Below the pieces are notes generated by a model. That model searched no databases. It saw only the letters and a program-made list of their open reading frames with translations, and was not told the origin of the DNA. This document shows positions 319 to 61,716 of a stretch of 64,000 nt of DNA, piece after piece. Every line of letters starts with the position of its first letter. Position 1 is the stretch's first letter. The translations under genes were made by a program, and so were the position numbers. Where the stretch lies: NCBI RefSeq assembly GCF_017745215.1, contig NZ_JAGHZV010000004.1, positions 36,931 to 100,930 of the forward strand. Direction: 5' to 3'. This stretch comes from Sphingomonas sp. (GTDB lineage: Bacteria > Pseudomonadota > Alphaproteobacteria > Sphingomonadales > Sphingomonadaceae).

Positions 319-991
319 CGCGAAGACGGCGACGAGGCTCGCGGCTGCACGCCGCGAATCCCGGTACGCCGGCGACCGGCGCCTCGAGGGTAACCCTCCG
401 CACGGTTCACGGTCGCGCCTCCGCACGCCCCACGGCAGGGGTGCGACGGTGCGAAACAAAGGCGGAACATGGCAACATGCTGGGGTAGGCTACGCCGATT
501 TACTACAAAGTCTAGAGTCGTGTCGGACTTGTCCACGACTTTCGGCAGGCTGTGCACGGGGCGCCCGGGCGGCTCGAGTTTCGCGACGGCCCGTGCCTGG
601 CGGGCGGCGGAATTGGGACGCCCGCGCGCGACGTGTTTCAGACGATACAAGGCAGAAACGAAGAGCGTCGCCGCAACGCCAAGAATTGCGATACAACAAA
701 CTCGTGTCACTCGGCGATGCCGTGAAGAAATATTGTGTCTGGAACTTCCGGATGCCATGCGATGGCAACAACCTATGTTAAGTGAAGATGAAACATGACG
801 CGAAGATTGAACTTGTATGACAAGGCTGCCGGACCGTGGGGGGCGCCTAGTTTCGGGACTCGATCGGTTTCGCGTTAACCTAAAGGGATGATTGACCCTT
901 CCTCAGGCGCCGTAGTAGTTTGCAGGAATCGTGCCGAGGGCATTGGGGGCCCGGGCGCGGGGGAGAAACTTCGGGGAGGCTTTTGGGGGCC

Positions 992-1945
992 ATGGGCGTG
1001 GGACTTCAGGATTTTGCCGAGCTTGTTCCGATCATCCCGATCGCGGATGCGCGGGCGCTCGGCGCGGGGCTCTGGGACGAGGAAGCGCTCGAGGCGCTGG
1101 CGACGCACGGCGCGGTGCTGCTGCGCGGGCCGGTGCTGCGCGAGGACGGCGTCGAGCTCGCGCTGTCGATCATCGACGAGGAACTGCTCGACGACGCCTT
1201 CTGGTCGACGCCGCGCAAGCGCGTGGGCGGCAAGACGCTGACCGCGACCGAATATCCCAGCCCGCGGACGATCCAGCTCCATTCGGAGATGGCCTATATG
1301 AACTCGTTCCCGCGCTTCCTGGCGTTCCACGCGCTCGAAGTGGCGGACGAGGGCGGGCAGACGACGATCTGCAACATCGAGAAGGTCACCGAGGCGCTCG
1401 GCGACCGGCTGCGCCCCTTCGCCGAGAAGGGCGTGACGTACCGCCGCACCTTCCAGAAGGGCATCGACATCGCCTGGCAGACCGCCTTCCAGACCGAGGA
1501 CAAGGCCGACGTCGAAAAGATCGCCGAGCGCAACGGCATGGAGCTCGAATGGCTCTCGGGCGATGCGCTGGTGACGCGGCACAAGGCGCAGGGCGTGATC
1601 ACCTCCGAGGACGGCCGGCCGATCATCTTCAACCAGGCGCATATCTTCCATGCCTCGAACCTCGATCCGCAAGCGCGCGAGGGGATCGAGAAGCTCTACG
1701 GCGCCGAGCGGCTGCCGCGCCACGCGCTCTACGGCGACGGCTCGGAAATCCCGCTCGAGGACATCCAGGCGGTCCAGCAGGCGTTCGAAAATCACCAGAC
1801 GGGCATGCATTGGCGCCCGGGCGACATTTTGATCATCGACAATATGCGCTATGCCCATGGCCGCATGCCGTTCAAGGGGACACGGCGGCTAACGGTTTCA
1901 ATGGCGAGAGAGGAAAAGCTCCCCGTCCGCACGGCGCTCTCCTGA
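992..1945 (+). CDS. Fe(II)/2-oxoglutarate dioxygenase, TauD/TfdA-clavaminate synthase-like (SyrP-like)
   Basis: ORF 920..1945, start taken at internal ATG (M25). Has the HSE facial-triad motif (LHSEMAY) and a distal IDNMRYAHGR His/Arg motif typical of this fold. Confidence 0.85.
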   Translation: MGVGLQDFAELVPIIPIADARALGAGLWDEEALEALATHGAVLLRGPVLREDGVELALSIIDEELLDDAFWSTPRKRVGGKTLTATEYPSPRTIQLHSEMAYMNSFPRFLAFHALEVADEGGQTTICNIEKVTEALGDRLRPFAEKGVTYRRTFQKGIDIAWQTAFQTEDKADVEKIAERNGMELEWLSGDALVTRHKAQGVITSEDGRPIIFNQAHIFHASNLDPQAREGIEKLYGAERLPRHALYGDGSEIPLEDIQAVQQAFENHQTGMHWRPGDILIIDNMRYAHGRMPFKGTRRLTVSMAREEKLPVRTALS

Positions 1946-2006
1946 GCGCTGCCTCTTGGGCCGCGGCGTCCGCCGCGGCTGGCCCGTTGGAAGGGAAGTG
2001 TCGCGC

Positions 2007-4640
2007 ATGCCCGTTGCCGCCGTTGGTCTTGTCGGGATCGAGAAAGTCTCCTCGATCGCGTACCTCGATGCGATCTTCGACTGTTACGAGCAGCGCCGGG
2101 TGGCCGTCCCGGTCGAGCCCGGCGGCAGCGCGCCCGAGGAGCATGAGTTCGCCGAGCGGCTGACGCCGGCGGCGGGCGGCGGCTGGTTCAAGCGCGCGCT
2201 CGCGCCGATCGTCGAGGACGGGCCGGCGCAGGTCAGCTTCAGCTCGGGCACCACGGGCACGCCCAAGGCAGTGCAGATCTCGCACCGCGCGCTCGCCGAC
2301 GTCACCCAGCGGCTGATCGAAGCGATGGCGATCGACGCGACGATCCGCGAATATGTCGGGGTGCCGGTCACCTACTCCTTCGGGCTGGCGCGCGCGCGCG
2401 TGACCGCGGCGGTGGGCGGCGAGGCCTATCTGCCGCCGCGCGGCTTCGATCCGATGGAATTCGCGGCGATGCTCGACGCGGGCGAAGTCAACGCGCTCTC
2501 CGCGGTGCCGACGCTGCTGCGCGTGCTGATCCAGAACCCCGACCTCATCGGCCGCAAGACCGGCCGCAAGCTGCAATGGCTCGAGATCGGCAGCCAGCCG
2601 ATGAGCGCCGAGGACAAGAAGGCGATCCGCCGGATGTTCCCCGCGGCGCGGATCGTGATGCACTATGGCCTGACCGAGGCCTCGCGCACCACCTTCCTCG
2701 ACGTGCAGGAAGCGACCGACGCGCAGCTCGAGACGGTGGGCAGGCCGACCGGCTCGGCCGAGGTGCGGATCGACGGCGCCGGGCGGATCTGCATCCGCGG
2801 GCCGCACGTCGCCGACGGGCTGCTCAAGCCCGAAGGGCTCGAGCCGATCGTCGACGGCGAGGGCTGGCTCGTCACCAACGACCTCGGCGAAGTCGACGCC
2901 GAGGGCTTCTTGCACTTCCTCGGCCGAGACGACCATCTGCTCAACGTCGGCGGGATCAAGGTGCCCGCCGAGCTGTTCGAGGCGCGGCTGGCGGCGCTGG
3001 TCGGCGCCGATGCCGCGCATGTCGCGGTGGCGGGGATCGAGGACGCACTCCGCGGCCAGGTGGTGATGGTGGCGCACCTCTCGAGCGTCGCGGTCGGGCC
3101 GTTGAGCGAGCACGCCCGCGCGACCGGCACGGGCTTCGGGCTCGCCGCGGCCGACGTGGTGCTGATCGAGGTCGACGCGATCCCGCGCACCGATACCGGC
3201 AAGGTCCAGCGCAAGCAGCTCGCCGAAGGGCGGACGGCGCCCGTGCGCGCGGCGGCACCTGCGCCTGTCGCCGAGGCCGCCGCGGCCGCTTCGCCGGCCG
3301 CCGCCATCCCCGCGGGGATGACCGCCAAGGAAGCCGAGATCGCGCGCATCTGGGGCGAAGCGCTCGGCGTTTCGTCGATCTCGCGCGACGACAGCTTCTT
3401 CGACATCGGCGGCGATTCGCTCTCGGCGATCACCGTGGCGCTGCGCGCCGAGCAGCACGGCATGCCCAAGGACGTGATGCAGCTCATGTTCGAGGGCCGC
3501 ACCGTCGCGCAGATCGCCGCGCTGATCGGCGGCGAGGCGCCCGCGGAAGGGCTCGAGCGCAGCCGCCGCGCGGTGCTCGCCGATGCGATCAACGCGACGC
3601 GCGGCGTGCTCGTGCTGATGGTGATCATGAACCATTGGTGGCACTTCTTCGTCGAGAAGATGGGCTCGGTCGGCCGGCACATCTATCCGGTCGGCCAGAT
3701 GCTGCTGCAGATGGGCACGCCGGGCTTCGCGATGGTGTTCGGTATCGGCGTGAGTTACTTCTACATGCCCGCGTTCGAGCGCTCGCCCGAACGGATCGGC
3801 AAGCGCGTGCGCGGCAACCTGATGGTGCTGGGCGTGGGGCTGCTGCTGCTCGCCGCGCTGCGCGCGGGGCGGCTCCAGGCCGACGGGCTCGGCTTCGGCG
3901 ACATCTGGCCCGAGCAGCTCTTCTTCTCGGTGGTGCTCAGCTATTTCCTGCTGATCCCGCTCATTCCGCTGATCCTGCGGCTGGTGCGGCTCACCCCGCG
4001 GACGATCCTCAACTGCCTGACGATGGGCGCGCTCGGCATCGCGCTGCTGCTCGGCTGCCAGGACTGGTTCGAGATCCACTACACCGGCTTCCTCAACCTC
4101 GCGCGGCTGATGGTGGTCTCGCCCTATTCGGTGCCGGCGATGCTCGGCGCGGTGGGGATCGGCATGGCGATCGGTCATTGGCTGCGCAGCAACCCCGACA
4201 ACCGCGACCTCAAGGGCCAGGCGGTGCAGACGGGCATCCTGCTCGCGATCGCGGGCGCGGTGTTCCTCGAGTTCACCGGCGGCTTCTGGGCGCATCCGCG
4301 CGGGCCGCACCTGTTCCTCTTCTACGCCGGGCTGCTGCTGATCGGCTTCACCTTCCTGTTGACGCTGATCGAGCGGGCGTGGCTGCCGCGGCTGCTGCGC
4401 GTGCTGATGCTGCTGGGGCTGCTCTCCTTCCCCGCCTTCATCGCGCACGAGCTGGTGATCCCCGCGAAGGACATCCTCCACTGGCTCGGCCTGCCGTACC
4501 CCGTCGCGCTCGGCGGCCCGCTGGCGCTGTTCATCGCGGGCACGGGCTACGCGATGCTACGGCTCAACCGGATCTACTTCGGCGGCGGCACCAAGACGCC
4601 GGATCGCGAAGTGCCGGCGGAGACGGTCGAGGCGTTCTAG
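2007..4640 (+). CDS. tri-domain protein: short adenylation (AMP-binding) domain, peptidyl/acyl carrier domain and membrane acyltransferase-3 domain
   Basis: ORF 1956..4640, start at M18. Adenylation motifs SSGTTGTPKAV, HYGLTE, GWLVTNDLG, GRDDHLLNVGGIKV and PRTDTGKVQRK. Carrier motif FFDIGGDSLSAI. The C-terminal ~370 aa are polytopic with an AT3-like RGVLVLMVIMNHWWH motif. Confidence 0.85.
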   Translation: MPVAAVGLVGIEKVSSIAYLDAIFDCYEQRRVAVPVEPGGSAPEEHEFAERLTPAAGGGWFKRALAPIVEDGPAQVSFSSGTTGTPKAVQISHRALADVTQRLIEAMAIDATIREYVGVPVTYSFGLARARVTAAVGGEAYLPPRGFDPMEFAAMLDAGEVNALSAVPTLLRVLIQNPDLIGRKTGRKLQWLEIGSQPMSAEDKKAIRRMFPAARIVMHYGLTEASRTTFLDVQEATDAQLETVGRPTGSAEVRIDGAGRICIRGPHVADGLLKPEGLEPIVDGEGWLVTNDLGEVDAEGFLHFLGRDDHLLNVGGIKVPAELFEARLAALVGADAAHVAVAGIEDALRGQVVMVAHLSSVAVGPLSEHARATGTGFGLAAADVVLIEVDAIPRTDTGKVQRKQLAEGRTAPVRAAAPAPVAEAAAAASPAAAIPAGMTAKEAEIARIWGEALGVSSISRDDSFFDIGGDSLSAITVALRAEQHGMPKDVMQLMFEGRTVAQIAALIGGEAPAEGLERSRRAVLADAINATRGVLVLMVIMNHWWHFFVEKMGSVGRHIYPVGQMLLQMGTPGFAMVFGIGVSYFYMPAFERSPERIGKRVRGNLMVLGVGLLLLAALRAGRLQADGLGFGDIWPEQLFFSVVLSYFLLIPLIPLILRLVRLTPRTILNCLTMGALGIALLLGCQDWFEIHYTGFLNLARLMVVSPYSVPAMLGAVGIGMAIGHWLRSNPDNRDLKGQAVQTGILLAIAGAVFLEFTGGFWAHPRGPHLFLFYAGLLLIGFTFLLTLIERAWLPRLLRVLMLLGLLSFPAFIAHELVIPAKDILHWLGLPYPVALGGPLALFIAGTGYAMLRLNRIYFGGGTKTPDREVPAETVEAF

Positions 4641-9511: not shown

Positions 9512-10618
9512 ATGGCAAAACAGACGGGCGGGCTCGACGGAGCCGGCATCCTGCACAATGAGCCGCCGAAGAGCCCCTGGGGCAATGGCGGCAAGAACGA
9601 CGGCAACGGCGGCTCGGGAGGCGGATCCGGCGGCGGCGGCGGCCCGCGCAATCCCTGGAACTTCCCCCCCAACGGCAAGAAGTCGCGCCCCGGTGCCGCG
9701 TCGCTCGACGAGTTCATCAAGCGCGCGCGCGGCGGCGGCGGCCCGGGCCTTCCCGGCCTGCCCAGCGGCTGGCGGCTGTGGGCCGCGGTGGTCGGCGGCC
9801 TCGTCCTGATCTGGGTGATCTTCTCGTCGGTCCATGTCATCGGCCCGCAGGAGCGTGGCGTGGCGAGCCTGTTCGGCCGCTATTCGACGACGCTGACGCC
9901 CGGCTTCAAGTTCACGCTGCCCGCGCCGTTCATGACGGTCGACGTCGTCGATGTGCAGAACATCCACACCGAGACCTTCCCGAAGAACAGCGGCGACAAT
10001 CTGATGCTCACGAGCGACCAGAACATCGTCGACCTCACTTATTCGGTGCGCTGGGACATCTCGAACGCGCCCGACTTCGTCTTCCAGATCGCCGATCCGC
10101 AGGAGACGGTGCGCGCGACCGCGGAGAGCGCGATGCGCGCGGTGGTCGCCACCTCGACGCTCAACGAAGCGATCGGCGACGGCCGCAGCCGCATCGAAGC
10201 GCGCGTGCAGATCATGATGCAGCAGATCCTCGACGACTATCATTCGGGCATCCGCATCCAGGGCGTGGCGATCCAGAAGGCCGGTCCGCCCTCGCAGGTC
10301 GACGATGCCTTCAAGGCCGTGACCGCCGCGCAGCAGGCCGCGCAGGCGAACAAGAACAACGCCAATGCCTATGCCCAGCAGGTGATCGCGGCCGCGCAGG
10401 GCCAGGCCGCCGAGTTCGACAAGCTCTACGAACAGTACAAGCTCGCCCCCGAAGTCACGCGGCGGCGGATGTATTACGAGACGATGGAAGCCGTGCTCCA
10501 GAAGTCCGACAAGGTGATCGTCGAGGCGCCGGGGGTCACGCCCTATCTGCCGATCCCGGGGCTCAAGCGTCCCGATCCGCAGCCCGACCAGCCCGCCAGC
10601 CAGGGAGACGCCAAGTGA
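9512..10618 (+). CDS. hflK: FtsH protease modulator HflK
   Basis: 368 aa with a Gly-rich N-terminus, one TM segment and an SPFH/band-7 domain. Followed by hflC with an overlapping GTGA junction. Confidence 0.9.
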   Translation: MAKQTGGLDGAGILHNEPPKSPWGNGGKNDGNGGSGGGSGGGGGPRNPWNFPPNGKKSRPGAASLDEFIKRARGGGGPGLPGLPSGWRLWAAVVGGLVLIWVIFSSVHVIGPQERGVASLFGRYSTTLTPGFKFTLPAPFMTVDVVDVQNIHTETFPKNSGDNLMLTSDQNIVDLTYSVRWDISNAPDFVFQIADPQETVRATAESAMRAVVATSTLNEAIGDGRSRIEARVQIMMQQILDDYHSGIRIQGVAIQKAGPPSQVDDAFKAVTAAQQAAQANKNNANAYAQQVIAAAQGQAAEFDKLYEQYKLAPEVTRRRMYYETMEAVLQKSDKVIVEAPGVTPYLPIPGLKRPDPQPDQPASQGDAK

Positions 10619-11478
10619 CCAGCTGGCTCCGCAATCCGATCGCGCTCGTCAGCGCCGCGCTGCTGCTGGTGGTCCTGGCGATCAGCAGCTTCTCGATCGT
10701 CGACGAGCAGCACCAGGCCGTGATCCTCCGGCTCGAGCAGCCGCTCGGCAAGCCGATCAACGCCTACAAGCCCGGCGAGGTCTATGGCCGCACCGGCGCG
10801 GGCGTGATCTTCCACATCCCGTTCGTCGATCGCGTCGTCTGGGTCGACAAGCGGGTGCTCGACGTCGACCTGACCAACCAGCCGGTGCTCTCCACCGACC
10901 GGTTGCGGCTCGAGGTCGACGCCTATGCGCGCTTCCGCGTGGTCGATCCGCTCCAGATGGTGGTGACCGTCGGCACGGTCGATCGCGTGCGCGACCAGCT
11001 CGAGCCGCTGTTCGGCTCGGCGCTGCGCAACGAGCTCGCCAAGGTCCCCGCGTCGATGCTGCTGAGCCCCGAGCGCGGCGAAGTGATGGACGACATTCAG
11101 GCCTCGCTCCAGCGACTCGCCAGCCAGTACGGCGTCGAGATCGTCGACGTCCGGATCAAGCATGCCGACCTGCCGAGCGGATCGCCGCTCACCAGCGCGC
11201 TCGACCGGATGCGCACCGCGCGCCAGCAGGAAGCTGCGACGATCGAGGCGCAGGGGCTGAAGGATGCGCAGATCATCCGCGCCAACGCCTCGGCGCAGGC
11301 CGCGCAAATCTATGCCGCGAGCTTCGGCAAGGACCCGGAATTCTACAATTTCTACCGCGCGATGCAGTCGTACCGCACGACCTTCCTCGCGCAGACGCCG
11401 CAAAAGGGATCGACGCAGATCATCCTGTCGCCGCAGAACGGCTATCTCAGGGAGTTCATGAACGGGGGGCAACGGTGA
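10615..11478 (+). CDS. hflC: FtsH protease modulator HflC
   Basis: GTG start overlaps the hflK stop. 287 aa with an SPFH domain and an N-terminal TM segment. Confidence 0.9.
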   Translation: MTSWLRNPIALVSAALLLVVLAISSFSIVDEQHQAVILRLEQPLGKPINAYKPGEVYGRTGAGVIFHIPFVDRVVWVDKRVLDVDLTNQPVLSTDRLRLEVDAYARFRVVDPLQMVVTVGTVDRVRDQLEPLFGSALRNELAKVPASMLLSPERGEVMDDIQASLQRLASQYGVEIVDVRIKHADLPSGSPLTSALDRMRTARQQEAATIEAQGLKDAQIIRANASAQAAQIYAASFGKDPEFYNFYRAMQSYRTTFLAQTPQKGSTQIILSPQNGYLREFMNGGQR

Positions 11479-11572
11479 AGCTGTCCAGACGTTCATATTC
11501 AATTGGCGTTCAGCATTCCGGGGCGAAACTCGCCTCCGGACGCGAAACCCGTTTCTAAGAGGATTTCATCCC

Positions 11573-13084
11573 GTGCGTTACGCCTATGCCCTAGCCACCT
11601 CGCTTCTCCTCGGCGGCGCTGCCGCCACGCTCGCCCTCCACCAGCCCGCCGGCGCGCAGACCGCGCAGAACGAGCCCGGCGCGATCCAGGCCGCCGCGCC
11701 GCGCGGCGGCGCGCCGATGAGCTTCGCCGACATGGTCGCCAAGCTCCAGCCGGCAGTGGTCAACATCTCGACCACCCAGCGCGTGCAGGTGCAGACCAAC
11801 CCCTTCGCGGGCACGCCGTTCGGCGACCTGTTCGGCCAGCAGGCGCCGAGCAAGCCGGTGACGCGCCAGGCCGAATCGCTCGGCTCGGGCTTCGTGATCT
11901 CGGCGGACGGCTATGTCGTCACCAACAACCACGTCATCTCGGCGGGCGACCGCGGCGCGGTGGTCGAATCGATCTCGGTCAAGCTCGCGGACGGCCGCGA
12001 GTTCAAGGCCAAGCTGATCGGCCGCGACGCCCAGTCGGACCTCGCGCTGCTCAAGATCGACGGCGTGACCAACCTGCCGTTCGTCAAGTTCGGCGATTCG
12101 GGCAATGCGCGCGTCGGCGACTGGGTGGTCGCGATCGGCAATCCCTTCGGCCTGGGCGGCACCGTCACCGCGGGCATCATCTCGGCCGTGCACCGCGTCA
12201 CCGGATCGGGCGCCTATGACCGGTTCATCCAGACCGACGCCTCGATCAACCGCGGCAATTCGGGCGGCCCGATGTTCGATCTCAACGGCAATGTGATCGG
12301 CATCAACTCGCAGATCCTGTCGCCGACCGGCGGCAACGTCGGCATCGGCTTCGCGATCCCCGCCGAAGAGGCCAAGCCGGTGATCGACCAGCTGATGAAG
12401 GGCACCGCGATCAAGCGCGGCTACCTCGGCGTCGGCATGCAGGACGTGACCGACGACATCGCCGACGCGCTGGGCGTGCCCAAGGGCCGCGGCACGCTGG
12501 TGAGCCGCGTCGAGCCGGGCGAGGCCGCCGACAAGGCGGGCGTGAAGCAGGGCGACGTGATCGTTGCGGTGAACGGCAAGGACGTGACGCCCGACCAGAC
12601 GCTCTCCTATCTCGTCGCCAACGTGACGCCGGGCACCAAGGTGCCGATCCAGGTGATCCGCGACGGCAAGCCGATCACGCTCAACGTGACCGTCGGCACG
12701 CGGCCGAGCGAGGAGCAGCTCGCCGCGAACAACTTCGACCCGAACGACGACGGCTCGGGCGACGGCAATGGCGCGCCCGACGCGCAGGCGGCGTCGCTTG
12801 GCGTCGCGGTCCAGCCGCTCACCCCGCAGATCGCACAGAGCGTCGGCGTCGACCCCAAGACCAGCGGCCTGGTGGTGCTCGGCGTCGATCCTTCGAGCGA
12901 CGCGGCCGGCAAGGGCCTGCGCCGCGGCGACGTGATCGTCTCGGCCAACAAGGCGCCGGTCGGCAATGCCGGCGATCTCGCCAAGGCCGTGCAGGCGAGC
13001 AAGACCGCCGGCAAGGGAACGGTGCTGCTCTACATCCAGCGCCGCAACTTCGGCGCCTATGTGCCGGTCGAGATCGGCGGCTGA
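11573..13084 (+). CDS. degP: periplasmic serine endoprotease, DegP/DegQ (HtrA) family with two PDZ domains
   Basis: GTG start with AAGAGGA RBS and a signal peptide. Catalytic motifs TNNHVI and GNSGGPMF. Conserved hflKC-degP gene order. Confidence 0.9.
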   Translation: MRYAYALATSLLLGGAAATLALHQPAGAQTAQNEPGAIQAAAPRGGAPMSFADMVAKLQPAVVNISTTQRVQVQTNPFAGTPFGDLFGQQAPSKPVTRQAESLGSGFVISADGYVVTNNHVISAGDRGAVVESISVKLADGREFKAKLIGRDAQSDLALLKIDGVTNLPFVKFGDSGNARVGDWVVAIGNPFGLGGTVTAGIISAVHRVTGSGAYDRFIQTDASINRGNSGGPMFDLNGNVIGINSQILSPTGGNVGIGFAIPAEEAKPVIDQLMKGTAIKRGYLGVGMQDVTDDIADALGVPKGRGTLVSRVEPGEAADKAGVKQGDVIVAVNGKDVTPDQTLSYLVANVTPGTKVPIQVIRDGKPITLNVTVGTRPSEEQLAANNFDPNDDGSGDGNGAPDAQAASLGVAVQPLTPQIAQSVGVDPKTSGLVVLGVDPSSDAAGKGLRRGDVIVSANKAPVGNAGDLAKAVQASKTAGKGTVLLYIQRRNFGAYVPVEIGG

Positions 13085-22024: not shown

Positions 22025-23608
22025 ATGAAGACCTTCCTCGCCGCGCTCCTCGCGATGCTCGCCGCGGCCGTGCCCGCCCAGGCGCAGAAGGACGACGCGA
22101 CCGACGCCTTCTTCAAGCCGAGCGAGACCCGGTCGAACGGCAGCGTCACCATCGGCGGCGCGCGCATCGCTTACCAGGCGATCGCCGGCACGCTCGTCGT
22201 CCATGCCAAGGACTGGCAGGACACCGACGCGATCGAAGCGGAGAAGGGCAAGGCCGACAAGGACGACGCCAAGCCCAAGCCAGAAGCGTCGATGTTCTAC
22301 ACCGCCTACTTCAGGACCGGCGCCCCCGCCGCCAACCGCCCGATCACCTTCGTCTTCAACGGCGGCCCCGGCTCCTCGTCGATCTGGCTCCACATGGGCG
22401 CCTTCGGCCCCGTCCGCGTCGAGACCCCCGACCTCGCCCACGCCCCCGCCGCGCCCTATGCCCTGGTCAACAACGACCAGAGCCTGCTCGACGTCTCGGA
22501 CCTCGTCTTCATCGATGCGCCCGGCACCGGCTTCAGCCGCGTCGCCGGCGACAAGAAGGAAGAGGCCTTCTACGGCGTCGACCAGGACATCCATGCCTTC
22601 GCCGAGTTCATCGGCGCCTTCCTCGACAGATACCAGCGCTGGAACTCGCCCAAATATGTCCTGGGCGAGAGCTACGGCACGATGCGCGGCGCCGGGCTGG
22701 CGCTCGCGCTCCAGCAGGCGAGCATCGATCTGAACGGCGTGATCCTGCTCTCGGACATCCTCAACTGGGACCTCGTGCCCGACGATCCGCAAGTGAATCC
22801 CGCGATCGACGCGCCCTATGTCGTGGCGCTGCCCACCTATGCCGCCACTGCCTGGTACCACCATCGGCTCGCCAGCCAGCCGCCCGCGCTCCGGCCCTTC
22901 CTCGACGAAGTCGAGGCGTTTGCCACGGGCGATTATGCGCTCGCGCTGATGCAGGGCAATTCGCTGCCCCTCGAGCGCCGCCAGGCGATCGCCGCGAAGC
23001 TCGCGGGCTATACCGGCCTCTCCGAAGCCTATCTGCTCAGGACCAACCTCCGCATCGAATATGGCGCCTTCCAGAAGGAGCTGATGGCGGGCGACGACCG
23101 CACCACCGGTACGCTCGACACGCGCTTCACCGGCTGGACGATCGACGCGCTGAGCAAGGTCGCGAGCTACGATCCGCAGGGCTCGGCGCTCGAGAGCGCC
23201 TATGTCGCGGCGTTCAACGCCTATGCGCGCGGCACGCTCGGCTATGGCGAAGGCATGCGCTTCAAGCCCGGCATCGATATCTACGGCAGCTGGGACTATA
23301 AGCACCAGCCGCCGGGCGCGGGCAAGCCGCTGATCGCGCTGCCCAACGTCCTGCCCGATCTCGCCGTGGCGATGAAGCAGAATCCCAATCTCAAGGTGAT
23401 GGTCAACGGCGGCTATTTCGACGTCTCGACGCCCTATTTCGCCGGCCGCTACGAGATGCGCCACTTGCCGGTGCCGCCCGCGATCGCGGCGAACGTCGAA
23501 TATCATTACTACGAGTCGGGCCACATGGTCTATGTGAACCCCGCCGTCCTCAAGGCCTTCCGCGCCGACGTCGCCGACTTCATCCGGCGGACCGACAATC
23601 TGCCCTGA
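22025..23608 (+). CDS. secreted serine carboxypeptidase, peptidase S10 family
   Basis: Internal ATG (residue 274 of ORF 21206..23608). Signal peptide MKTFLAALLAMLAAAVPAQA. NGGPGSSS and GESYG catalytic-Ser motifs. Confidence 0.85.
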   Translation: MKTFLAALLAMLAAAVPAQAQKDDATDAFFKPSETRSNGSVTIGGARIAYQAIAGTLVVHAKDWQDTDAIEAEKGKADKDDAKPKPEASMFYTAYFRTGAPAANRPITFVFNGGPGSSSIWLHMGAFGPVRVETPDLAHAPAAPYALVNNDQSLLDVSDLVFIDAPGTGFSRVAGDKKEEAFYGVDQDIHAFAEFIGAFLDRYQRWNSPKYVLGESYGTMRGAGLALALQQASIDLNGVILLSDILNWDLVPDDPQVNPAIDAPYVVALPTYAATAWYHHRLASQPPALRPFLDEVEAFATGDYALALMQGNSLPLERRQAIAAKLAGYTGLSEAYLLRTNLRIEYGAFQKELMAGDDRTTGTLDTRFTGWTIDALSKVASYDPQGSALESAYVAAFNAYARGTLGYGEGMRFKPGIDIYGSWDYKHQPPGAGKPLIALPNVLPDLAVAMKQNPNLKVMVNGGYFDVSTPYFAGRYEMRHLPVPPAIAANVEYHYYESGHMVYVNPAVLKAFRADVADFIRRTDNLP

Positions 23609-28217: not shown

Positions 28218-28410
28218 CGCTTCCTCCCCATCGCGAGCGCTCGACCGGCGCTCAATTGACATGAGTGTAAGTGAGACCTCGGCGAGCGGCAACGGGACTC
28301 TTCGCCAAATTGCGGGCGGGATGCGATCCATCCCGTTTTGGATGGGCTAATGTTGCGCCTGCGTAGCGGCCATGTTACCCAGAGTTGAGTGAATGCAAGG
28401 GGGGAATACC

Positions 28411-28584
28411 ATGCGCGACGACCTCATCACCGGGAAGGGCGACGGCATTTCCGACGCGCCCCGCAAGCCGCGCTGGCGCACGCCGAAACTTGTGGCGGAC
28501 AATATCACTGCAGTGACGCACGCGGATTTTTCGCCGGGTACCGATGCTTATGACGGCACGTCGACTTCCTACGGCCCGAGCTGA
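28411..28584 (+). CDS. putative lasso-peptide precursor (57 aa; predicted leader 37 aa, core ADFSPGTDAYDGTSTSYGPS)
   Basis: AAGGGGGG RBS 7-8 nt upstream of ATG 28411 (M7 of ORF 28393..28584). The gene ends 27 nt before the AsnB-like cyclase gene. WxxPxL leader motif, Thr at -2, Ala1 and Asp8, C-terminal Ser. Confidence 0.6.
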   Translation: MRDDLITGKGDGISDAPRKPRWRTPKLVADNITAVTHADFSPGTDAYDGTSTSYGPS

Positions 28585-28611: not shown

Positions 28612-30495
28612 ATGACCGAGTTCGCCGGACTGGTTCGTCTGGACGATCTGCGCGTCGATCCTGCCTCGATCGATCGCCTGACTCGCGCGGTTCATGGTGC
28701 CGGGCGGCCGGTCCGCTGGCAGCCGGACCCGTCTTGTTTCTTCGTCGAAGCGCGCGTCGAGGGAGAGCCGCTTCCAAGTCAGCCTGACGACGACACGGCT
28801 ATCCTGGCCGACGTATGGCTCGAAGCGCCGGGCGACGCCGCGCGCGCGCTGGGGCTGAACCGGGCGATCGCGGATCGTGCCCTCGTCACCGCCGCCTGCG
28901 CGTCATGGGGGGCGGAGGCCGCCGCAGACCGATTGCCCGGCGCGCTCGCGCTCGCGCATTGGGACGGCAGGGCACGCCGCCTCACGCTCGCACGCGACGC
29001 GTTTGGCGACCGGCCGCTCTATTATGTTGAGACGCCCGCGCTGATCCTGTTCGCCACCACGCTCCAGGCGATGCTCGCCATGCCCGAGACGCCGCGCGAG
29101 CTGGACGAGACGGTGATCGCCGACACGCTTGCCCGGGCGCTGCGCGATCCGGAGCGGACGATCTACCGCCACATCCGCCGCGTCCCGCCGGGCGGCAGCG
29201 TGACTTTCGAGCGCGGCCGCTGCAAGGTCGGGCGCTGGTACGGTCGCGAGCGCATCGCGCGGGTGCGATTCCGACGCGACGAGGACTATGTCGAGGCGGC
29301 GCGTGCGCTCCTCGACGCCGCGGTCGCGGCGCGGCTGCCGCGGGATGGCGGCTGCGCGACGACGCTCTCGGGCGGGTTCGATTCGGCCGGCGTCACCGCC
29401 ACTGCGGCGCAGCTGCTCAACGGCGAACGCTTGCCCGTCTTCACGCGACTCGCTGATGCCGAGCATTGCCGGATCGAAGGCGACGAGGCGCGGCTCGCAG
29501 CGCTGCTCGTCCAGCGCCACCCGAACATCGACTGGCACGTGATCGACCGCGACGACCCCGCTGCCTCGGGGTTCGACCCCGACCGCGATGCGCGCGCGCG
29601 GCTGGTGCCGCGGATGGCCGCGCTCAACGGGCCCTGGTTCGAATCGCTCTACCTCGCGGTCGGGCGGCACGGCGCCACGCGGCTGCTGAACGGCGGGACG
29701 GGCAACATGACGCTGTCCTACGAGGGGCGTGCCGATGCGATCGGCGCGCTGCGCCATGGCCGGATCGGCGACGCCTGTCGCGAGATCGGCGGCGCGGCGC
29801 GGCGCGGCGGCCGGTCGCTCCCGCGCGCAGCCGCCGCGGCGCTGTTCCAGGGGATCGCGCCGCGCTCGCTCCGGCGCTGGCGCACGCGGCTGCGCGACGG
29901 GCGCCTGGCCTGGCTCCGCCATTCGATGCTCGCGCCCGACTTCCTCGACGCGCTCGACTATGCCGATCATGCCCGCACGCTCGGTCACGACATTCCGTTC
30001 GAGCCGGAGGGCGACAGCATCGACTATCGCCTGCGTATGCTCCAGTCGCAGGGCACCGCCGACATGCAGGGGTTCGTCCGCCGCCGCTGGCGCTTCGACC
30101 TGCTCGATCCCTATCGCGACCGCCGGCTCGCCGAATTCTGCCTGGGCATTCCCGACGAGCAGCACCGGCAGGGCGGCGAGGGCCGCCGGCTCGCGCGCCG
30201 CGTGCTCGCCGACCGGGTGCCGGCCGAGACGCTCGCCCGCCAGGGGCGCGGCCGGCAGGCGAGCGACTGGTTCGCGCTGCCGTCCGGGCGCCGCGAGGAA
30301 ATGGCCGAGGCAGTCGATCGGATCGCACGCTCGCCGCTCGCCAGTCGCGTGCTCGACGTGCCGCGGATGCGCGTGCTGCTCGATACCTGGCCGCGAGACG
30401 GCGAGACGGCGAGCCAGGCGCGCCACGGCAGCGCGCTCCAGCGGGGGATCGCGATGGGCGCGTTCCTGCGCTGGCACGAGGGCCGCAATGACTGA
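28612..30495 (+). CDS. asparagine synthetase-like protein, lasso-peptide lactam synthetase (C protein)-like
   Basis: 627 aa. PP-loop motif SGGFDS. N-terminus MTEFAG lacks the Cys2 glutaminase nucleophile of true AsnB. The gene directly follows a small precursor-like gene. Confidence 0.85.
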   Translation: MTEFAGLVRLDDLRVDPASIDRLTRAVHGAGRPVRWQPDPSCFFVEARVEGEPLPSQPDDDTAILADVWLEAPGDAARALGLNRAIADRALVTAACASWGAEAAADRLPGALALAHWDGRARRLTLARDAFGDRPLYYVETPALILFATTLQAMLAMPETPRELDETVIADTLARALRDPERTIYRHIRRVPPGGSVTFERGRCKVGRWYGRERIARVRFRRDEDYVEAARALLDAAVAARLPRDGGCATTLSGGFDSAGVTATAAQLLNGERLPVFTRLADAEHCRIEGDEARLAALLVQRHPNIDWHVIDRDDPAASGFDPDRDARARLVPRMAALNGPWFESLYLAVGRHGATRLLNGGTGNMTLSYEGRADAIGALRHGRIGDACREIGGAARRGGRSLPRAAAAALFQGIAPRSLRRWRTRLRDGRLAWLRHSMLAPDFLDALDYADHARTLGHDIPFEPEGDSIDYRLRMLQSQGTADMQGFVRRRWRFDLLDPYRDRRLAEFCLGIPDEQHRQGGEGRRLARRVLADRVPAETLARQGRGRQASDWFALPSGRREEMAEAVDRIARSPLASRVLDVPRMRVLLDTWPRDGETASQARHGSALQRGIAMGAFLRWHEGRND

Positions 30496-31420
30496 TCCGG
30501 CGGCTCATCGCGGCTACACGCTCGCCGGCTGGCGCGTGGTCAGCGCGATCGCGCTCCCCGAACTGGCGTCGTGGACCGGCGACGACCGGGCGCCGGACCT
30601 CGAGATCGTGCTGGGCCCGGTGCCCGACGCGCTCGACGCGCCACGGCTGCGCACGCCGGTCGCGCAGATCGAAGCGAGCGGGCGCGCGCGCTTCGGCATC
30701 GCCTCGGTCGGGACCTATCTGGTGGAGCCGGGGCGGATCACCATCGATCCGCACATGGCGCCGGATGCGCCCGACGTGCGGCTCTTCCTGTTCGGCACGC
30801 CGTTCGGGATCGCCTGCCATCAGCGGGGGCTGGTGCCGCTCCATGCCTCCACCGTCGAAGTCGATGGCGAGGCGGTCGCCTTCACGGGCGCCTCGGGCGT
30901 CGGCAAGTCGACGCTGGCCGCCGCCTTCCAGCGCCGCGGGCATCGCCTGCTCGGCGACGATGTCGCGCCGGTGCAGGTGAACGGCGAGCAGGCCCTGATC
31001 CTTCCCGGCATCCGGCGCGTGCGGCTGTGGGAGGATTCGGCGCAGGCCGCAGGCTGGGACGTCGCCGCGCTCGAGCCGTGCCGGGTCGGCATGAGCAAGT
31101 TCAGCCACGCGCCCGAGAACAGCTTCGCCGAAGCACCGCTCAGGGCGCGCGCGATCGTCCATCTCGAACGCCAGCCGAGGAGCGTGGGCGAAGCGAGCTT
31201 CCGCCGGCTGCGCGGCCGCCAGGCGGTGCGGCGCGCGAGCGACGAGATCTTCCGCCTGCGCTCGCTCCGCGCGCTCGCCGGCGACGCCGAAGCGCTGGTG
31301 CGCAGCGCGCGGCTGGCGGGCGCGATCCCGCAACATTTCGTGCTCACGCGGCCGCATCGCTTCGAGGATCTCGACACGCATGTCGACATGATCCTCGAGA
31401 CGATCCGCCGCGACGGCTAG
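30488..31420 (+). CDS. HPr kinase C-terminal-domain-like kinase (RiPP precursor Ser kinase-like)
   Basis: ATG overlaps the cyclase stop by 8 nt. 310 aa. LHASTVEVDGEAVAFTGASGVGKSTLA P-loop context is typical of HprK-related kinases. Confidence 0.8.
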   Translation: MTDPAAHRGYTLAGWRVVSAIALPELASWTGDDRAPDLEIVLGPVPDALDAPRLRTPVAQIEASGRARFGIASVGTYLVEPGRITIDPHMAPDAPDVRLFLFGTPFGIACHQRGLVPLHASTVEVDGEAVAFTGASGVGKSTLAAAFQRRGHRLLGDDVAPVQVNGEQALILPGIRRVRLWEDSAQAAGWDVAALEPCRVGMSKFSHAPENSFAEAPLRARAIVHLERQPRSVGEASFRRLRGRQAVRRASDEIFRLRSLRALAGDAEALVRSARLAGAIPQHFVLTRPHRFEDLDTHVDMILETIRRDG

Positions 31421-31431
31421 CGGCGGCGGGC

Positions 31432-32265
31432 ATGGGCGGCGCGATCTGGCTTGCCTCCTATCCCAAGTCCGGGAACACTTGGGCGCGGCTCGCGCTCCTA
31501 TCGCTGTCGAACGGCGGCGCGCCCGCGAGCCTCGGCGAACTGGGCGGCTTCGCGCCGATGCTCGCGACCAATCCCAACCTCGACCGGCTGCTCCAGGTCG
31601 AGAGCGGCCATCTGACCGAGGACGAGATCGAGGCGCTCCGCCCCGACCTCAACCGCGAGCTCTTCGCCGGGCCCGAGCCGCGCCCGTGCAAGGTCCACGA
31701 CGCCTGGACGCGCGCGCCCGATGGCCGGCCGCTGTTCGACGCCGACGTGACGCACGCGGCGATCTACCTGGTGCGCGACCCGCGCGACATCGCCGTCTCC
31801 TGGTCCCGCTTCGCCGGCGTGGGGATCGACCGCGCGGTCGCGATGCTTGCCGATCCCGGTGCCGAGCTCTCGTCCAACGCCCGTGCCGCCCGCCTCCAGC
31901 TGCGCCAGCGGCTGAAGAGCTGGAGCCGCCACGTGACGAGCTGGCTCGACGAATCGGGCTTCGACCCGCTGCTGATCCGCTACGAGGACATGCTCGAGGA
32001 TCCGGCGCGCGAGATCGCACGGATGGCGGCGCACATGGGCTGGGCGGCCGAGCCCCAAGCAGTGGCCGGCGCGGTCGAGGCGACGCGCTTCGAGGAGCTC
32101 GCCGAGCAGGAGCGCCGCCACGGCTTCCGCGAGCGGATGGACCGGACCGAGCGCTTCTTCCACACCGGCCGCAGCGGCGGCTGGCGCGAGCTGCTCAGCG
32201 CCGACCAGGCCGCGCGGATCGAGCGCGACCATGGCGAGGTGATGGCGCGGCTGGGGTATCGCTAG
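31432..32265 (+). CDS. PAPS-dependent sulfotransferase (Sulfotransfer_1-like)
   Basis: 277 aa. 5'-PSB loop YPKSGNTW and 3'-PB motif YLVRDPRDIAVS. Confidence 0.85.
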   Translation: MGGAIWLASYPKSGNTWARLALLSLSNGGAPASLGELGGFAPMLATNPNLDRLLQVESGHLTEDEIEALRPDLNRELFAGPEPRPCKVHDAWTRAPDGRPLFDADVTHAAIYLVRDPRDIAVSWSRFAGVGIDRAVAMLADPGAELSSNARAARLQLRQRLKSWSRHVTSWLDESGFDPLLIRYEDMLEDPAREIARMAAHMGWAAEPQAVAGAVEATRFEELAEQERRHGFRERMDRTERFFHTGRSGGWRELLSADQAARIERDHGEVMARLGYR

Positions 32266-55758: not shown

Positions 55759-58700
55759 ATGAAGCTGGTTCTGCGGGTTGCACTCCTGGCTCTCGTGGCG
55801 GCGCCGATCGGCGCGATCGCCGCGTTCGGCGACAATTCTCCCCAAGTCGAGATGGCCACGCCCGGCATCGGCAACGGCGCGATCGAGCGATTCACCGTCC
55901 GCTTCAGCACGCCGATGGTCGCGCTGGGCGATCCCCGCGCCGAATCGCCCTTCGACGTGACCTGCCCGGTCGCGGGCACCGGCCGCTGGGTCGACCAGCA
56001 GACCTTCGTCCATGAATTCGCATCGCCGCTCCCCGGCGGGATCAGCTGCGCGTTCAAGCTCAAGGACAAGCTCAAGAGCCTGTCGGGCTATGCGATCGCG
56101 GGGCAGCACGACTTCACCGTCGACAGCGGCGGGCCCACGGTGCGCGCGGTGCTGCCGACGCGCTACGGCGGCCAGATCGAGGAGGACCAGGTGTTCCTCG
56201 TCGCCGCCAACCAGGGCGTCGACACCGCCTCGGTGGCGGCGACCAGCTATTGCACCGTCGACGGCATCGGCGAGCGCATCCCGGTGGAGGTGCTGTCGCC
56301 TGCCATCCCTGCGCAGCTGCTCGCCGACATGGGCACCGATCGCTGGGAGGTGCGCGAGTTCCTCGAGAGCGCGGGCCTGCCGCAGGCGCTGCCGGCGAGC
56401 GCGGAGGACCGGCAGAAGGCACTCTCGACCGTGGTGGCGCTGCGCTGCCGCCGACCGCTCGCGCCGGGCCGCGACATGGCGCTGTTCTGGAGCAAGGACG
56501 TGCGCGGCGTCACCGGCAAGCTCGCCGGTGCCGACCAGCGTTTCGACTATACCGTGCGCAAGCCCTTCGAGGCGCGTTGGGAATGCTCGCGGGTCAACGC
56601 CCAGGCGGGCTGCAACCCGGTGCAGGACGGCTATGTCCGCTTCTCGGCGCCGATCCCGCGCGAGAAGGCCGAGGCGATCCGCATCCAGACGCCCGACGGC
56701 CAGCAGATCGCGCCGGCGCTTTCGGACAGCGACAAGCGCGCCAAGTTCGTCTCGGACATCAAGTTCAAGGCGCCGCTCCCCGCCGCGGTGACCGCCAAGC
56801 TGCTGCTCCCCGCCGACATCACCGACGAGAGCACGCGCAAGCTCGCCAACGCCCAGCGCTTCCCGCTCGACATCAAGATCGACGAGGCGCCGCCGCTGGT
56901 GAAGTTCGCGAGCGACTTCGGTATCCTTGAGCTCAACCAGGGCGGCGTGCTGCCGGTCACGGTGCGCAACGTCGAGGAGCAGCTCCAGGGGCAGAATCTC
57001 ACGGTCGCCGGCCAGGCGCTGCGGATCGATTCGTCGGACGGCGACGTCGCGCGCTGGATGCGCACCGTCGACGAGGCGGGCCAGACCAAATACGACCAGG
57101 TCAAGAAGGGCGACGACACCGTCTCGGTCAACCAGACCGGCGCCAAGTCGATCCTCCAGGGCAAGGGCGGCGCGACGCAGTTCAACGTCGGATTGCCGGG
57201 CAAGGGCAAGGACTTCGAGGTCGTCGGCATCCCGCTGACCAAGCCGGGCTTCTACGTCGTCGAGCTCGCTTCGCCCAGGCTCGGCGAGGCGCTGCTCGGG
57301 CGCCAGGCGCCGCGCTACGTCGCGACCGCAGCGCTCGTCACCAACATGTCGGTCCATTTCAAATGGGGCCGCGAAGGCTCGCTGGTGTGGGTGACCGCCC
57401 TCGATAGCGGGCTGGGCGTCGGGGGCGCCGACGTGCGCATCTCGGACAGCTGCACCGGGCTGGTGATCGCCAAGGGCAAGACCGACGAATCGGGCCGGCT
57501 CGCGGTCCCCGCCGAGCTGCCCGACCAGGAGAGCTGGGGCGGCTGCGGCGACACCAGCACCAACCATCCGCTGATGGTCTCCGCGACCAAGGGCGACGAC
57601 TATAGCTTCGACTGCACCTTGTGGGACGACGGCATCACGCCGAGCGACTTCGACCTGCCCTATGGCTACAGCGCCCCCGACGACGTGTTCCACAGCGTCT
57701 TCGACCGCGCGCTGGTCCGCCAGGGCGAGACGATCCACATGAAGCACATCCTGCGCCGCCCGGCCGCCAACGGCTTCGCGCTCGCGCCGGGCTTCACCGG
57801 CAAGCTGCGGCTGACGCATGGCGGATCGGACACGCAGTTCGACCTGCCGCTGACCGTCGATGCGAGCGGCAATGCCGATTCGACCTGGCAGGTGCCGCAG
57901 GGCGCGCCGATGGGCGACTATAACCTCACCGTGCTCTACAATGCCTCGGTCGACGGCAAGAGCGAGGAGCGCCAGCTCTGGACCGGCCAGTCGTTCAAGG
58001 TCGACGAATATCGCCTGCCGACGATGAAGGCGACCGTCTCGGGCCCGAAGGACCCCGCGATCCGGCCCAAGACGCTGCCGCTCGACCTGTTCGTCGGCTA
58101 TCTCTCGGGCGGCGGCGCGTCCAACCTGCCGGTCGACCTGCGCGTCGGCTATTTCGCCAGCTCCTCCTCGCCCGAGGGCTATGAGGCGTACACCTTCGGC
58201 GGCCACAGGATCGAGGAAGGCACCAAGGCGCTGAACGTCGATATCGACGATGTCGACGACGCCGACAGCCAGGACACGGCCAGCCTGCCGCCGACCCAGA
58301 CCATCCCCTCGACGCTCGGCGCCGACGGCAGCGCGCGCACCACGGTCGACGTGCCGCAGACGATCGACGGCGACACGACGATGCAGGTCGAGATGGATTA
58401 CCAGGACGCCAACGGCGAGGTGCTGACCGCGTCCTCCTATATCCCGCTCTATGCCTCGGGCGTGCGGCTCGGCGTCAAGACCGACGGCTGGCTGATGAAG
58501 CAGGACGACCTCCGCCTGCGCCTCGTCACGCTCGACACCTCGGGCAAGCCGGTGGCCAACCAGTCGGTGACGGTCGACCTCTACAGCCGCGAGGTGCTCA
58601 CCGCGCGGCGGCGGCTGATCGGCGGCTTCTACGCCTATGACAACCAGGTGAAGACCACCAAGCTCTCCGCTTCCTGCGCCGCGACCAGCGATGCGCAGGG

Positions 58701-61569: not shown

Positions 61570-61607
61570 GTCGATGTGAGTGATGAGCGTGACGGCGTAG
61601 ATTCAAA

Positions 61608-61716
61608 CGTGTCGCCCCCGCGAAAGCGGGAGCCCCGCTTTGGTGCTCTCCGCGAATACGCTGCCTGGATTGCGAAGAAGGCAAGAAGCGGAGTCCCCGC
61701 TTTCGCGGGGGTGGCG
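61608..61716. repeat. family-1 variant long palindromic element at the a2m-pbpC junction
   Basis: CGTGTCGCCCCCGCGAAAGCGGGAGCCCCGC ... GCGGAGTCCCCGCTTTCGCGGGGGTGGCG. Confidence 0.75.

Follow-up and report, generated by a model that had tools for sequence, protein, structure and literature searches.

The window analysed here, meaning the whole 64-kb stretch of Sphingomonas sp. DNA (64,000 nucleotides, G+C 69.8%), carries a compact + strand operon in which GC3 frames and Pfam delimit four genes within 3.9 kb, for a small precursor, a cyclase, a kinase and a sulfotransferase. The first ORF (28411-28584, + strand) encodes by direct translation the 57-aa peptide MRDDLITGKGDGISDAPRKPRWRTPKLVADNITAVTHADFSPGTDAYDGTSTSYGPS, followed by a stop codon. 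A Shine-Dalgarno-like AAGGGGGG is read directly from the sequence at 28397-28404 (+ strand), 6 nt 5' of the ATG. Both the peptide and this AAGGGGGG had been described in an earlier, sequence-only reading of the DNA, and both were read here exactly as noted. An alternative in-frame ATG at 28393 would add MQGGNT to the N-terminus; the 57-aa form was chosen by an independent gene call in the Logan assembly of SRR14086905, and an identical 57-aa protein is held by NCBI as "hypothetical protein [Sphingomonas sp.]". The GC3 of the small ORF is 0.76 versus about 0.9 in neighbouring genes, so codon statistics alone are a weak signal. No sigma-70-like promoter was found for the ORF, the promoter and terminator scan being uninformative, and the peptide had no matches in Pfam and NCBIfam, including the curated lasso precursor models.

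The asparagine-synthetase-like cyclase (C; 627 aa; 28612-30495, + strand) begins 27 nt past the small ORF and was recognized by Pfam (Asn_synthase, 5e-19; GATase_7, 1e-12). Among NCBIfam models, "lasso peptide isopeptide bond-forming cyclase" scores highest (166 bits; curated cut-off, 525), ahead of AsnB with 114 bits, which is also under its curated cut-off. The N-terminus, MTEFAG, has no glutaminase Cys nucleophile (no Cys2), and the SGGxDS ATP-pyrophosphatase loop is present and is kept in 85-89 of 91 homologues. An identical protein (100% identity) is on record from Sphingomonas sp., and full-length relatives, mostly from Sphingomonadales, share 40-57% identity with the window protein. Judged by these features, the 627-aa protein is predicted to be a lasso macrolactam cyclase.

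The gene of the HPr-kinase-like kinase (310 aa; 30488-31420, + strand; Logan gene call) shares its first 8 nt with the end of the cyclase gene. The kinase matches Pfam Hpr_kinase_C at 3.4e-9, above the cut-off, while its best NCBIfam model, HprK-related kinase A (TIGR04352), scores 54 bits versus a cut-off of 200; its PDB matches are limited to the HPrK/P catalytic core. Its sequence reads GASGVGKST...RGHRLLGDD; 62-66 of 67 sequences retain the GxSGxGKS P-loop and the DD motif. The catalytic residues of lasso HPrK-like kinases are His-Lys-Asp-Asp, according to Zhu et al. as cited in PMC9266682. Column by column, the P-loop Lys is found in 64/67 and the two Asp in 65/67 and 62/67, and the His is variable (20/67). 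By analogy with such kinases, the enzyme is predicted to act on the C-terminal Ser of the precursor.

The PAPS-type sulfotransferase (277 aa; 31432-32265, + strand; Pfam Sulfotransfer_1, 4e-22) follows 11 nt past the kinase. Its nearest solved structures are SULT1A1 and the glycopeptide sulfotransferases Teg12, Teg14 and StaL, and it keeps the PKSGNTW 5'-PSB (PAPS) loop and the catalytic His, which are conserved among homologues. It resembles phenol sulfotransferases. None of the four genes is truncated when set against its homologues (100% coverage).

Both flanks consist of housekeeping genes. Upstream, on the opposite strand, lie genes for a thiolase, a CoA-transferase, an SDR and an acyl-CoA dehydrogenase; the downstream, convergent flank comprises a PLP-decarboxylase, an SDR, pheT, pheS, rplT and rpmI. 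The stop codon of the PLP-decarboxylase overlaps the convergent sulfotransferase stop, at the position where relatives carry RRE and ABC genes. No mobile-element-like repeats were found bounding the module.

Conservation of the precursor, its leader and its core

The window ORF was found by a family HMM built without it (E=1e-14, 50 bits), and the runner-up in this leave-one-out search of 870 six-frame window segments of at least 30 aa reached E=0.33. More than 30 loci have an orthologue next to a homologous cyclase gene, and comparison of close orthologues gave a pN/pS of 0.06-0.24 at pS of 0.25-0.53, indicating purifying selection. Given the leave-one-out match and the pN/pS values, the ORF evolves as a translated gene; it is a genuine, conserved precursor gene with selection acting on it. 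In most close loci the small ORF lies just upstream of the cyclase, and in L001 and L002 it sits past a downstream halogenase gene. The sequence-only reading had looked to homologous loci for a conserved small ORF, and one is present there beside the cyclase gene. An exhaustive phmmer search with the lone 57-aa query returned itself and one 53-aa relative only, which shows that single-sequence searching lacks the sensitivity needed for short peptides. Databases give the peptide family no name; all its members are entered as "hypothetical protein".

The leader region comprises 37 codons, M1-H37 (28411-28521, + strand), with W22-x-x-P25-x-L27, I32 at -6 and T36 at -2. An alignment of 26 sequences shows no variation at W22 and P25 and conservation of at least 90% at L27 and T36, which bears out the conservation anticipated earlier for W-16, P-13, L-11 and T-2. 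The residue positions given at that time also agree: W22/P25/L27 correspond to -16/-13/-11, T36 to -2, A38 to +1, D45 to +8 and Y47/Y54 to +10/+17, with S57 at the C-terminus. The canonical YxxPxL motif at -17/-14/-12 serves B1 recognition, and the -2 residue serves B2 recognition (PMC10368454). The earlier observation that WxxPxL lies one residue nearer to the cleavage site than the canonical motif proved real and family-wide, as Thr stands 14 residues past Trp in 28 of the 31 family members, including those from loci with canonical B1/B2. Two of the exceptions, L007 and L081, are both kinase-less and have the canonical spacing (+15), and the third, L008, has Ser at +14. Cleavage with Ile or Val at -2, as described in PMC10368454, was rejected because the conserved Asp would then leave positions 7-9 in several members.

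The predicted core is ADFSPGTDAYDGTSTSYGPS (20 codons and a stop; 28522-28584, + strand). The nearest subfamily of the window peptide consists of L083, L084, L085, L001 and L002, and its cores of 19-20 residues follow the template x-x-F-x-x-G-(I/T)-D8-x-Y10-(D/E)11-...-Y-G-x-S. ADFSPGTDAYDGTSTSYGPS matches this template at each residue, including Tyr10, Asp11 and Tyr17-Gly-Pro-Ser20; Tyr10 and Tyr17 are conserved within the subfamily. Paeninodin ends in Tyr-x-Ser, and the Tyr17-Gly-Pro-Ser20 of the window core parallels this end. Tyr as a universal site of sulfation was rejected, as seven sulfotransferase-containing loci have Tyr-free cores.

The macrolactam predicted for this core would join the Ala1 alpha-amine to the Asp8 side chain. 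Of the Ala1-Asp8 ring proposed in the sequence-only reading, the Asp8 end stood: an acidic residue occupies core +7 to +9 in 28/31 family members, and D8 is invariant in the six-member subfamily containing the window peptide. The Ala1 end did not, since nine different residues occur at +1 among the 31 members (N8, G6, S5, I3, A2, H2, T2, E2, F1). Characterised lasso peptides show a G/A/S/C bias at core +1; the variable +1 of this family is compatible with cyclisation through any alpha-amine, yet atypical. The terminal Ser, whose conservation had also been put forward, is present in all 31 members. Ser20 of the core is the predicted phosphorylation site, and the residue gains meaning from the HPr-kinase-like kinase and the sulfotransferase directly downstream, a setting to which the sequence-only reading gave too little weight.

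Missing functions at the locus and in the Sphingomonas clade

Pfam scans of all confidently called ORFs of the 64 kb revealed neither Transglut_core3 (the transglutaminase-like leader peptidase, lasso B/B2; PF13471) nor PqqD (RRE). Family HMMs from related loci were then run against every six-frame window segment of at least 30 aa, and they matched the cyclase, the kinase and the sulfotransferase only. Neither an RRE nor a D-type ABC exporter gave a match at E<=0.01 in the 64 kb, and the best window score of the B2 peptidase HMM at --max was only E=2. RRE, B2, nucleotidyltransferase and D-type ABC exporter are all absent from the 64 kb, also by the family HMMs at --max and E<=10. The sequence-only reading had remarked that the locus is devoid of an RRE gene; this is true by Pfam and family HMMs, and for the whole window.

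The relatives of the module were surveyed by a profile scan of GTDB species genomes, which yielded 80 homologous-cyclase loci, and four further contexts were added by exact-protein look-up; a genome scan with exact peptide words from the window cyclase gave no matches. By neighbour clustering, an HPrK-like kinase is encoded in 58/80 loci, an adjacent kinase-then-sulfotransferase pair in 40/80, an ABC exporter in 29/80 and an NTP_transf_5 nucleotidyltransferase, sometimes fused to B2, in about 20/80. The sulfotransferase is always adjacent to the kinase and always second in order (40 loci). A PqqD RRE (Pfam, 1.9e-17; best NCBIfam model, lasso PqqD chaperone) occurs in 61/80 loci and also in L084 and L085. 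The B2 HMM was rebuilt after the NTP_transf_5 nucleotidyltransferases, which fusion proteins had joined to B2, were separated from it, and a B2 peptidase adjoining the RRE was found in about 25 of the more distant loci (NF033537, 100 bits versus a cut-off of 33).

Loci of the close Sphingomonas clade usually run A, C, K, ST, with a convergent RRE and an ABC exporter beyond. As the PqqD gene of these relatives is convergent and lies past the sulfotransferase, the missing RRE is explained: the window locus lost this gene or never had it. Three other loci share the lack of RRE and ABC exporter, namely L083 (the nearest relative of the window locus, seen on an 8.2-kb contig), L015 and L057. The last two are second loci, in genomes that also hold the RRE-bearing L006 and L005, respectively; in L015 the cyclase is split into two ORFs.

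B2 is absent within 10 kb from all of the approximately 25 Sphingomonas clade loci. On a neighbour-joining tree of the cyclases this clade is contiguous and flanked by lineages with RRE and B2, and the absence of B2 at the locus is thus a derived state. The W-x-x-P-x-L of the window peptide, its Thr at W+14, its acidic residue within +7 to +9 and its terminal Ser recur in the precursors of sister loci that have canonical RRE and B2 beside the cyclase (L022, L024, L025, L029, L069 and L073), and these common features tie the window peptide to bona fide lasso machinery. Moreover, Thr(-2) is conserved in nearly all B2-less loci among the 31 members, no less strongly than where sister loci contain B2; this speaks for a B2-like enzyme that is still at work. 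A profile of the sister-locus B2 gave 446 database matches; those named among the best 120 were from Azospirillum, Novispirillum, Aquabacter and others, and none of the named ones was from Sphingomonas. About 90% of the matches are unnamed, so this absence is weak evidence. Taken together with the lack of B2 within 10 kb in the clade, it leads us to consider that the cognate B2 may not exist, that is, that it is perhaps missing from the Sphingomonas clade genomes. The neighbourhoods of B2-less loci were judged by eye for an alternative protease; only a penicillin-amidase-like gene and an amidohydrolase (5-7 loci) and regulators were seen, none of them universal, and all were rejected. The genome of Sphingomonas sp. 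So64.6b carries the family locus L081 at 0.30 Mb, and its antiSMASH regions include two lasso and two RRE regions, none at the L081 position (PMC9716278). Because these lasso and RRE regions lie elsewhere, trans-acting components are available at least in that genome.

Proposed maturation and its alternatives

A precursor next to such enzymes is what a specialist would expect, and the peptide is, as far as its sequence goes, a kinase-type lasso precursor. The locus is not classed as a complete lasso BGC, for want of co-encoded B/B2 and RRE; it is classed here as a reduced or satellite form within the kinase-type lasso family. Since RRE, B2 and exporter do not lie in the 64-kb window, the module most likely depends, as a satellite, on B1/B2/D encoded elsewhere in the genome. 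The reading that we favour, and hold to be probable, is therefore that the ORF, as gene A, supplies the precursor of a kinase-type lasso-like RiPP of class II and heads an A-C-K-ST operon that works as a satellite module with an RRE, a B2 and an exporter encoded elsewhere. Its satellite part is favoured by the RRE-less A-C-K-ST loci L015 and L057, each a companion of an RRE-containing locus in its genome, and by the lasso and RRE regions that So64.6b has away from L081. Within it, the phosphorylation site, the cleavage site, the ring, its threading and the supply of the missing functions in trans are what we infer. Points against it are the missing RRE, B2 and exporter, the variable +1, the cyclase score of 166 versus 525 bits and the fact that no isolated threaded product of a proteobacterial kinase-type cluster is reported in the reviews.

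On this reading, maturation would begin with translation of the 57-aa precursor, whose leader a PqqD-type RRE would bind via W22/P25/L27 (W(-16)xxP(-13)xL(-11)). The kinase would phosphorylate Ser57 on the linear peptide, and the adjacent PAPS-type sulfotransferase would add sulfate to a hydroxyl of the peptide. A B2 cysteine protease would then cleave after Thr36(-2)-His37(-1), and the cyclase would adenylate Asp45 (Asp8) and close an 8-residue macrolactam onto the amine of Ala38 (Ala1), around the tail. Tyr17, and possibly Tyr10, would be the candidate plug. The calculated monoisotopic mass is 1976.791 for the core as lactam ([M+2H]2+, 989.403), 2056.758 with HPO3, 2056.748 with SO3 and 2136.714 with both, so that phosphate and sulfate forms would differ by 9.5 mDa.

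A bolder statement, which we regard as unlikely, concerns the clade: the Sphingomonas clade of kinase/sulfotransferase-tailored lasso-like clusters would mature without a dedicated B2, and the window module also without RRE and exporter, either by a B1/B2-independent route that ends in a lasso or lasso-like macrolactam, or by a "master and satellite" arrangement, with one set of leader-processing genes serving several precursor-cyclase modules in trans. On this statement, the paired kinase and sulfotransferase could yield the first sulfated (or phospho-sulfated) lasso peptide.

Two other explanations take the missing genes differently. The locus may be a non-productive orphan, with its RRE and exporter lost, without compatible B1/B2 elsewhere in the genome, with a product that goes no further than a phosphorylated or sulfated linear peptide, and with decay under way. 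The absence of RRE, B2 and ABC from the 64 kb would fit such decay, as would the overlap of the sulfotransferase and PLP-decarboxylase stops where relatives have RRE and ABC and the split cyclase of the related reduced locus L015. However, the four genes are full length with intact catalytic motifs, every conserved family residue is kept in the precursor, and L083, an independent RRE-less locus, retains the same intact module; we thus consider the orphan explanation unlikely.

We judge it likewise improbable, and a shade more so, that the Sphingomonas clade uses B2-independent or non-lasso chemistry, with another protease at work or the leader kept, and with the asparagine synthetase homologue catalysing some other ATP-dependent amide formation or amidation. 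The clade-wide lack of B2 within 10 kb, while RRE, kinase, sulfotransferase and exporter are retained, speaks for this, together with the want of Sphingomonas-named proteins among the top B2-profile matches and the highly variable +1 residue. In addition, pseudomycoidin, from a kinase-type cluster, was made in vivo without leader or leader peptidase, according to Zyubko et al. (2019) as cited in PMC9266682. On the other side, Thr(-2) is conserved in nearly all B2-less loci and the acidic residue at +8/+9 is retained, canonical B1/B2 occur in sister lineages within the cyclase family, and the neighbourhoods yielded no alternative protease that recurs.

Finally, a chance open frame in GC-rich intergenic DNA with a coincidental lasso likeness, for which the low GC3, the lack of a sigma-70-like promoter and the lack of Pfam and NCBIfam matches could be cited, is effectively refuted by the pN/pS values and the leave-one-out HMM match, as well as by the more than 30 loci and the agreement of two independent gene callers, and is left with practically no probability.

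If peptidase and RRE act in trans, mining tools that rely on B, C and RRE genes lying together would count too few lasso peptides; the absence of the So64.6b family locus from the published antiSMASH regions of that genome is relevant to such undercounting. If no B2 exists, a new route of leader removal would be implied. With four genes in 3.9 kb, the system is small and readily tractable by heterologous expression.

Comparison with known kinase-type systems

Kinase-type lasso clusters are known, and no role for a sulfotransferase accompanying the kinase is reported in the reviews. In paeninodin and its relatives, the precursor receives its phosphate on the C-terminal Ser from the HPr-kinase homologue while it is still linear, ahead of leader removal and cyclisation (PMC8498205, PMC9266682). 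The paeninodin-type clusters (PadeK/ThcoK; Paenibacillus, Thermobacillus) and the pseudomycoidin cluster (PsmK/PsmN) resemble the window locus in combining an HPr-kinase-like kinase with an asparagine-synthetase-like cyclase, and their precursors, like that of the window, have a terminal Ser with a Tyr two to three residues ahead of it, an aromatic-x-x-P-x-L leader and Thr(-2); the Ala1/Asp ring predicted for the window core matches theirs. In the Firmicutes paeninodin-type clusters, B1, B2 and D lie next to A and C, whereas the window locus has none of these; it differs further in having W(-16) instead of Y(-17) and a sulfotransferase directly after the kinase. Putative sulfotransferase and nucleotidyltransferase genes have been noted in kinase-type clusters, and a function was assigned for PsmN of pseudomycoidin only (PMC8498205, PMC9266682, PMC4289311).

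The Bradymonadales system BsfA/BsfK/BsfB1/BsfB2 (PMC10368454) has, like the one predicted for the window, a kinase-tailored lasso precursor with a YxxPxL-type motif and an 8-residue ring of the Gly1-Asp8 style, and the action of its kinase is enhanced by the B1 RRE (PMC10368454). It has Ile(-2), is phosphorylated at Ser3 and has both B1 and B2 in the cluster, whereas the window family is marked by Thr(-2) and keeps its Ser at the C-terminus. The "HPr-rel-A system" of Haft (TIGR04352, HprK-related kinase A; TIGR04353, PqqD_rel_X) provides the best or listed NCBIfam models for the kinase and for the RRE of related loci. Scores far below the curated cut-offs (54 versus 200 bits for the kinase) place the window locus outside this equivalog.

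Among proteobacterial kinase-type clusters, that of Sphingobium yanoikuyae ATCC 51230 (SyanA/SyanK/SyanB2; Zhu et al. 2016) shares with the window an origin in Sphingomonadales, an HPrK-like kinase and a precursor with a C-terminal Ser. Such clusters (S. yanoikuyae SyanK/SyanA) have only the terminal Ser in common with Firmicutes precursors (PMC8498205, PMC9266682). Compared by description only, the cluster organisations of S. yanoikuyae and of the window are both unlike the Firmicutes type (PMC8498205, PMC9266682, PMC10368454). No proteobacterial kinase-type product is reported in the reviews as isolated in the form of a threaded lasso, and that of S. yanoikuyae is termed "putative" (PMC8498205). 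SyanB2 is reported for S. yanoikuyae (PMC10368454), whereas the clade of the window is without B2 at the locus. Set beside these systems, the features that mark the present family as a variant are the shifted leader register (W-16), the free +1 residue, the obligate pair of kinase and sulfotransferase, and the clade-wide lack of B2 at the locus.

Kinase, sulfotransferase and neighbouring enzyme genes

Among 40 related cyclase loci (e.g., L001-L017), the HPrK-like kinase gene is invariably followed directly by the sulfotransferase gene, and the same order is found in the window (30488-32265). This constant adjacency suggests that the two enzymes are coupled in their action on the same peptide, and possibly they even share one target residue. 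No sulfated lasso peptide was found in literature searches.

A Trp_halogenase-family gene adjoins the gene of the PqqD-type leader-binding protein (RRE) in the window's nearest subfamily (L001, 14066-15975; L002; L017; L085, 7281-8051), being placed between RRE and precursor in L001 and L002, and is absent from the window. The predicted cores contain no Trp, and their only aromatic residues are Phe and Tyr. Genes for 2OG-Fe(II) oxygenase-like (PF13759/PF13640) and JmjC-domain proteins are recurrent neighbours of the sulfotransferase or RRE (L009; L010; L016; L083, 4365-5147; L084, 6082-6954; L085, 1-1988), and they may encode additional tailoring (hydroxylation) enzymes.

Flanking genes in the related loci and in the window

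In 17-19 loci from several alphaproteobacterial orders, the region upstream of the precursor holds a conserved block of five divergently oriented genes, coding for DUF6916, a GNAT acetyltransferase and a tandem array of three phage-tail-Collar-domain proteins. This block occupies 6870-9300 in L003 and 6853-9353 in L081, with equivalent positions in L005-L007, L009-L014, L016, L022, L024, L033, L034, L037, L059 and L069; the window does not contain it. A Peptidase_S10 (serine carboxypeptidase)-like ORF of the window (22025-23608, + strand) precedes the precursor by about 5 kb. Only one homologue was found in the 80-locus set, at a similar distance in L023, which also lacks the leader peptidase B2, and this shared placement is probably a coincidence. 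Two further gene groups of the window, a TauD-family dioxygenase gene adjoining a stand-alone AMP-binding/PCP (NRPS-like) gene (920-4640, +) and an alpha-2-macroglobulin and PBP1C pair (55759-63894, +), have no relation to the lasso-type finding.

Variant loci and precursor number

Seven loci of Allosphingosinicella/Sphingomonadales (L038, L042, L046, L050, L061, L062 and L064), in which several gene identities were judged by eye, have another architecture without B2 and kinase: a very large protein comes first, then RRE and cyclase, next a regulator-like protein of 160 aa with two histidine-kinase-like genes, and last a set of export genes (HlyD-, ABC- and FtsX-like). No precursor was identified at these seven loci. 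L005, L009, L011 and L014 each have, some 8 kb upstream from the main precursor-cyclase-kinase-sulfotransferase locus, a second cyclase paralogue that is more distant and has a PqqD gene of its own after it (positions 1-2000). The stretch in between holds an amidohydrolase and a penicillin-amidase-like gene (identified by eye), and here, too, no B2 is in view. In L015, which is the second locus of Sphingomonas sp. MMS24-J45 and lacks an RRE, the cyclase homologue was called as two consecutive ORFs (~10001-11901), which could reflect a frameshift or a pseudogene. Finally, one 15.6-kb JGI metagenomic contig encodes three paralogous precursor-family peptides (P0062, P0064 and P0065), and thus the precursor family includes multi-precursor loci.
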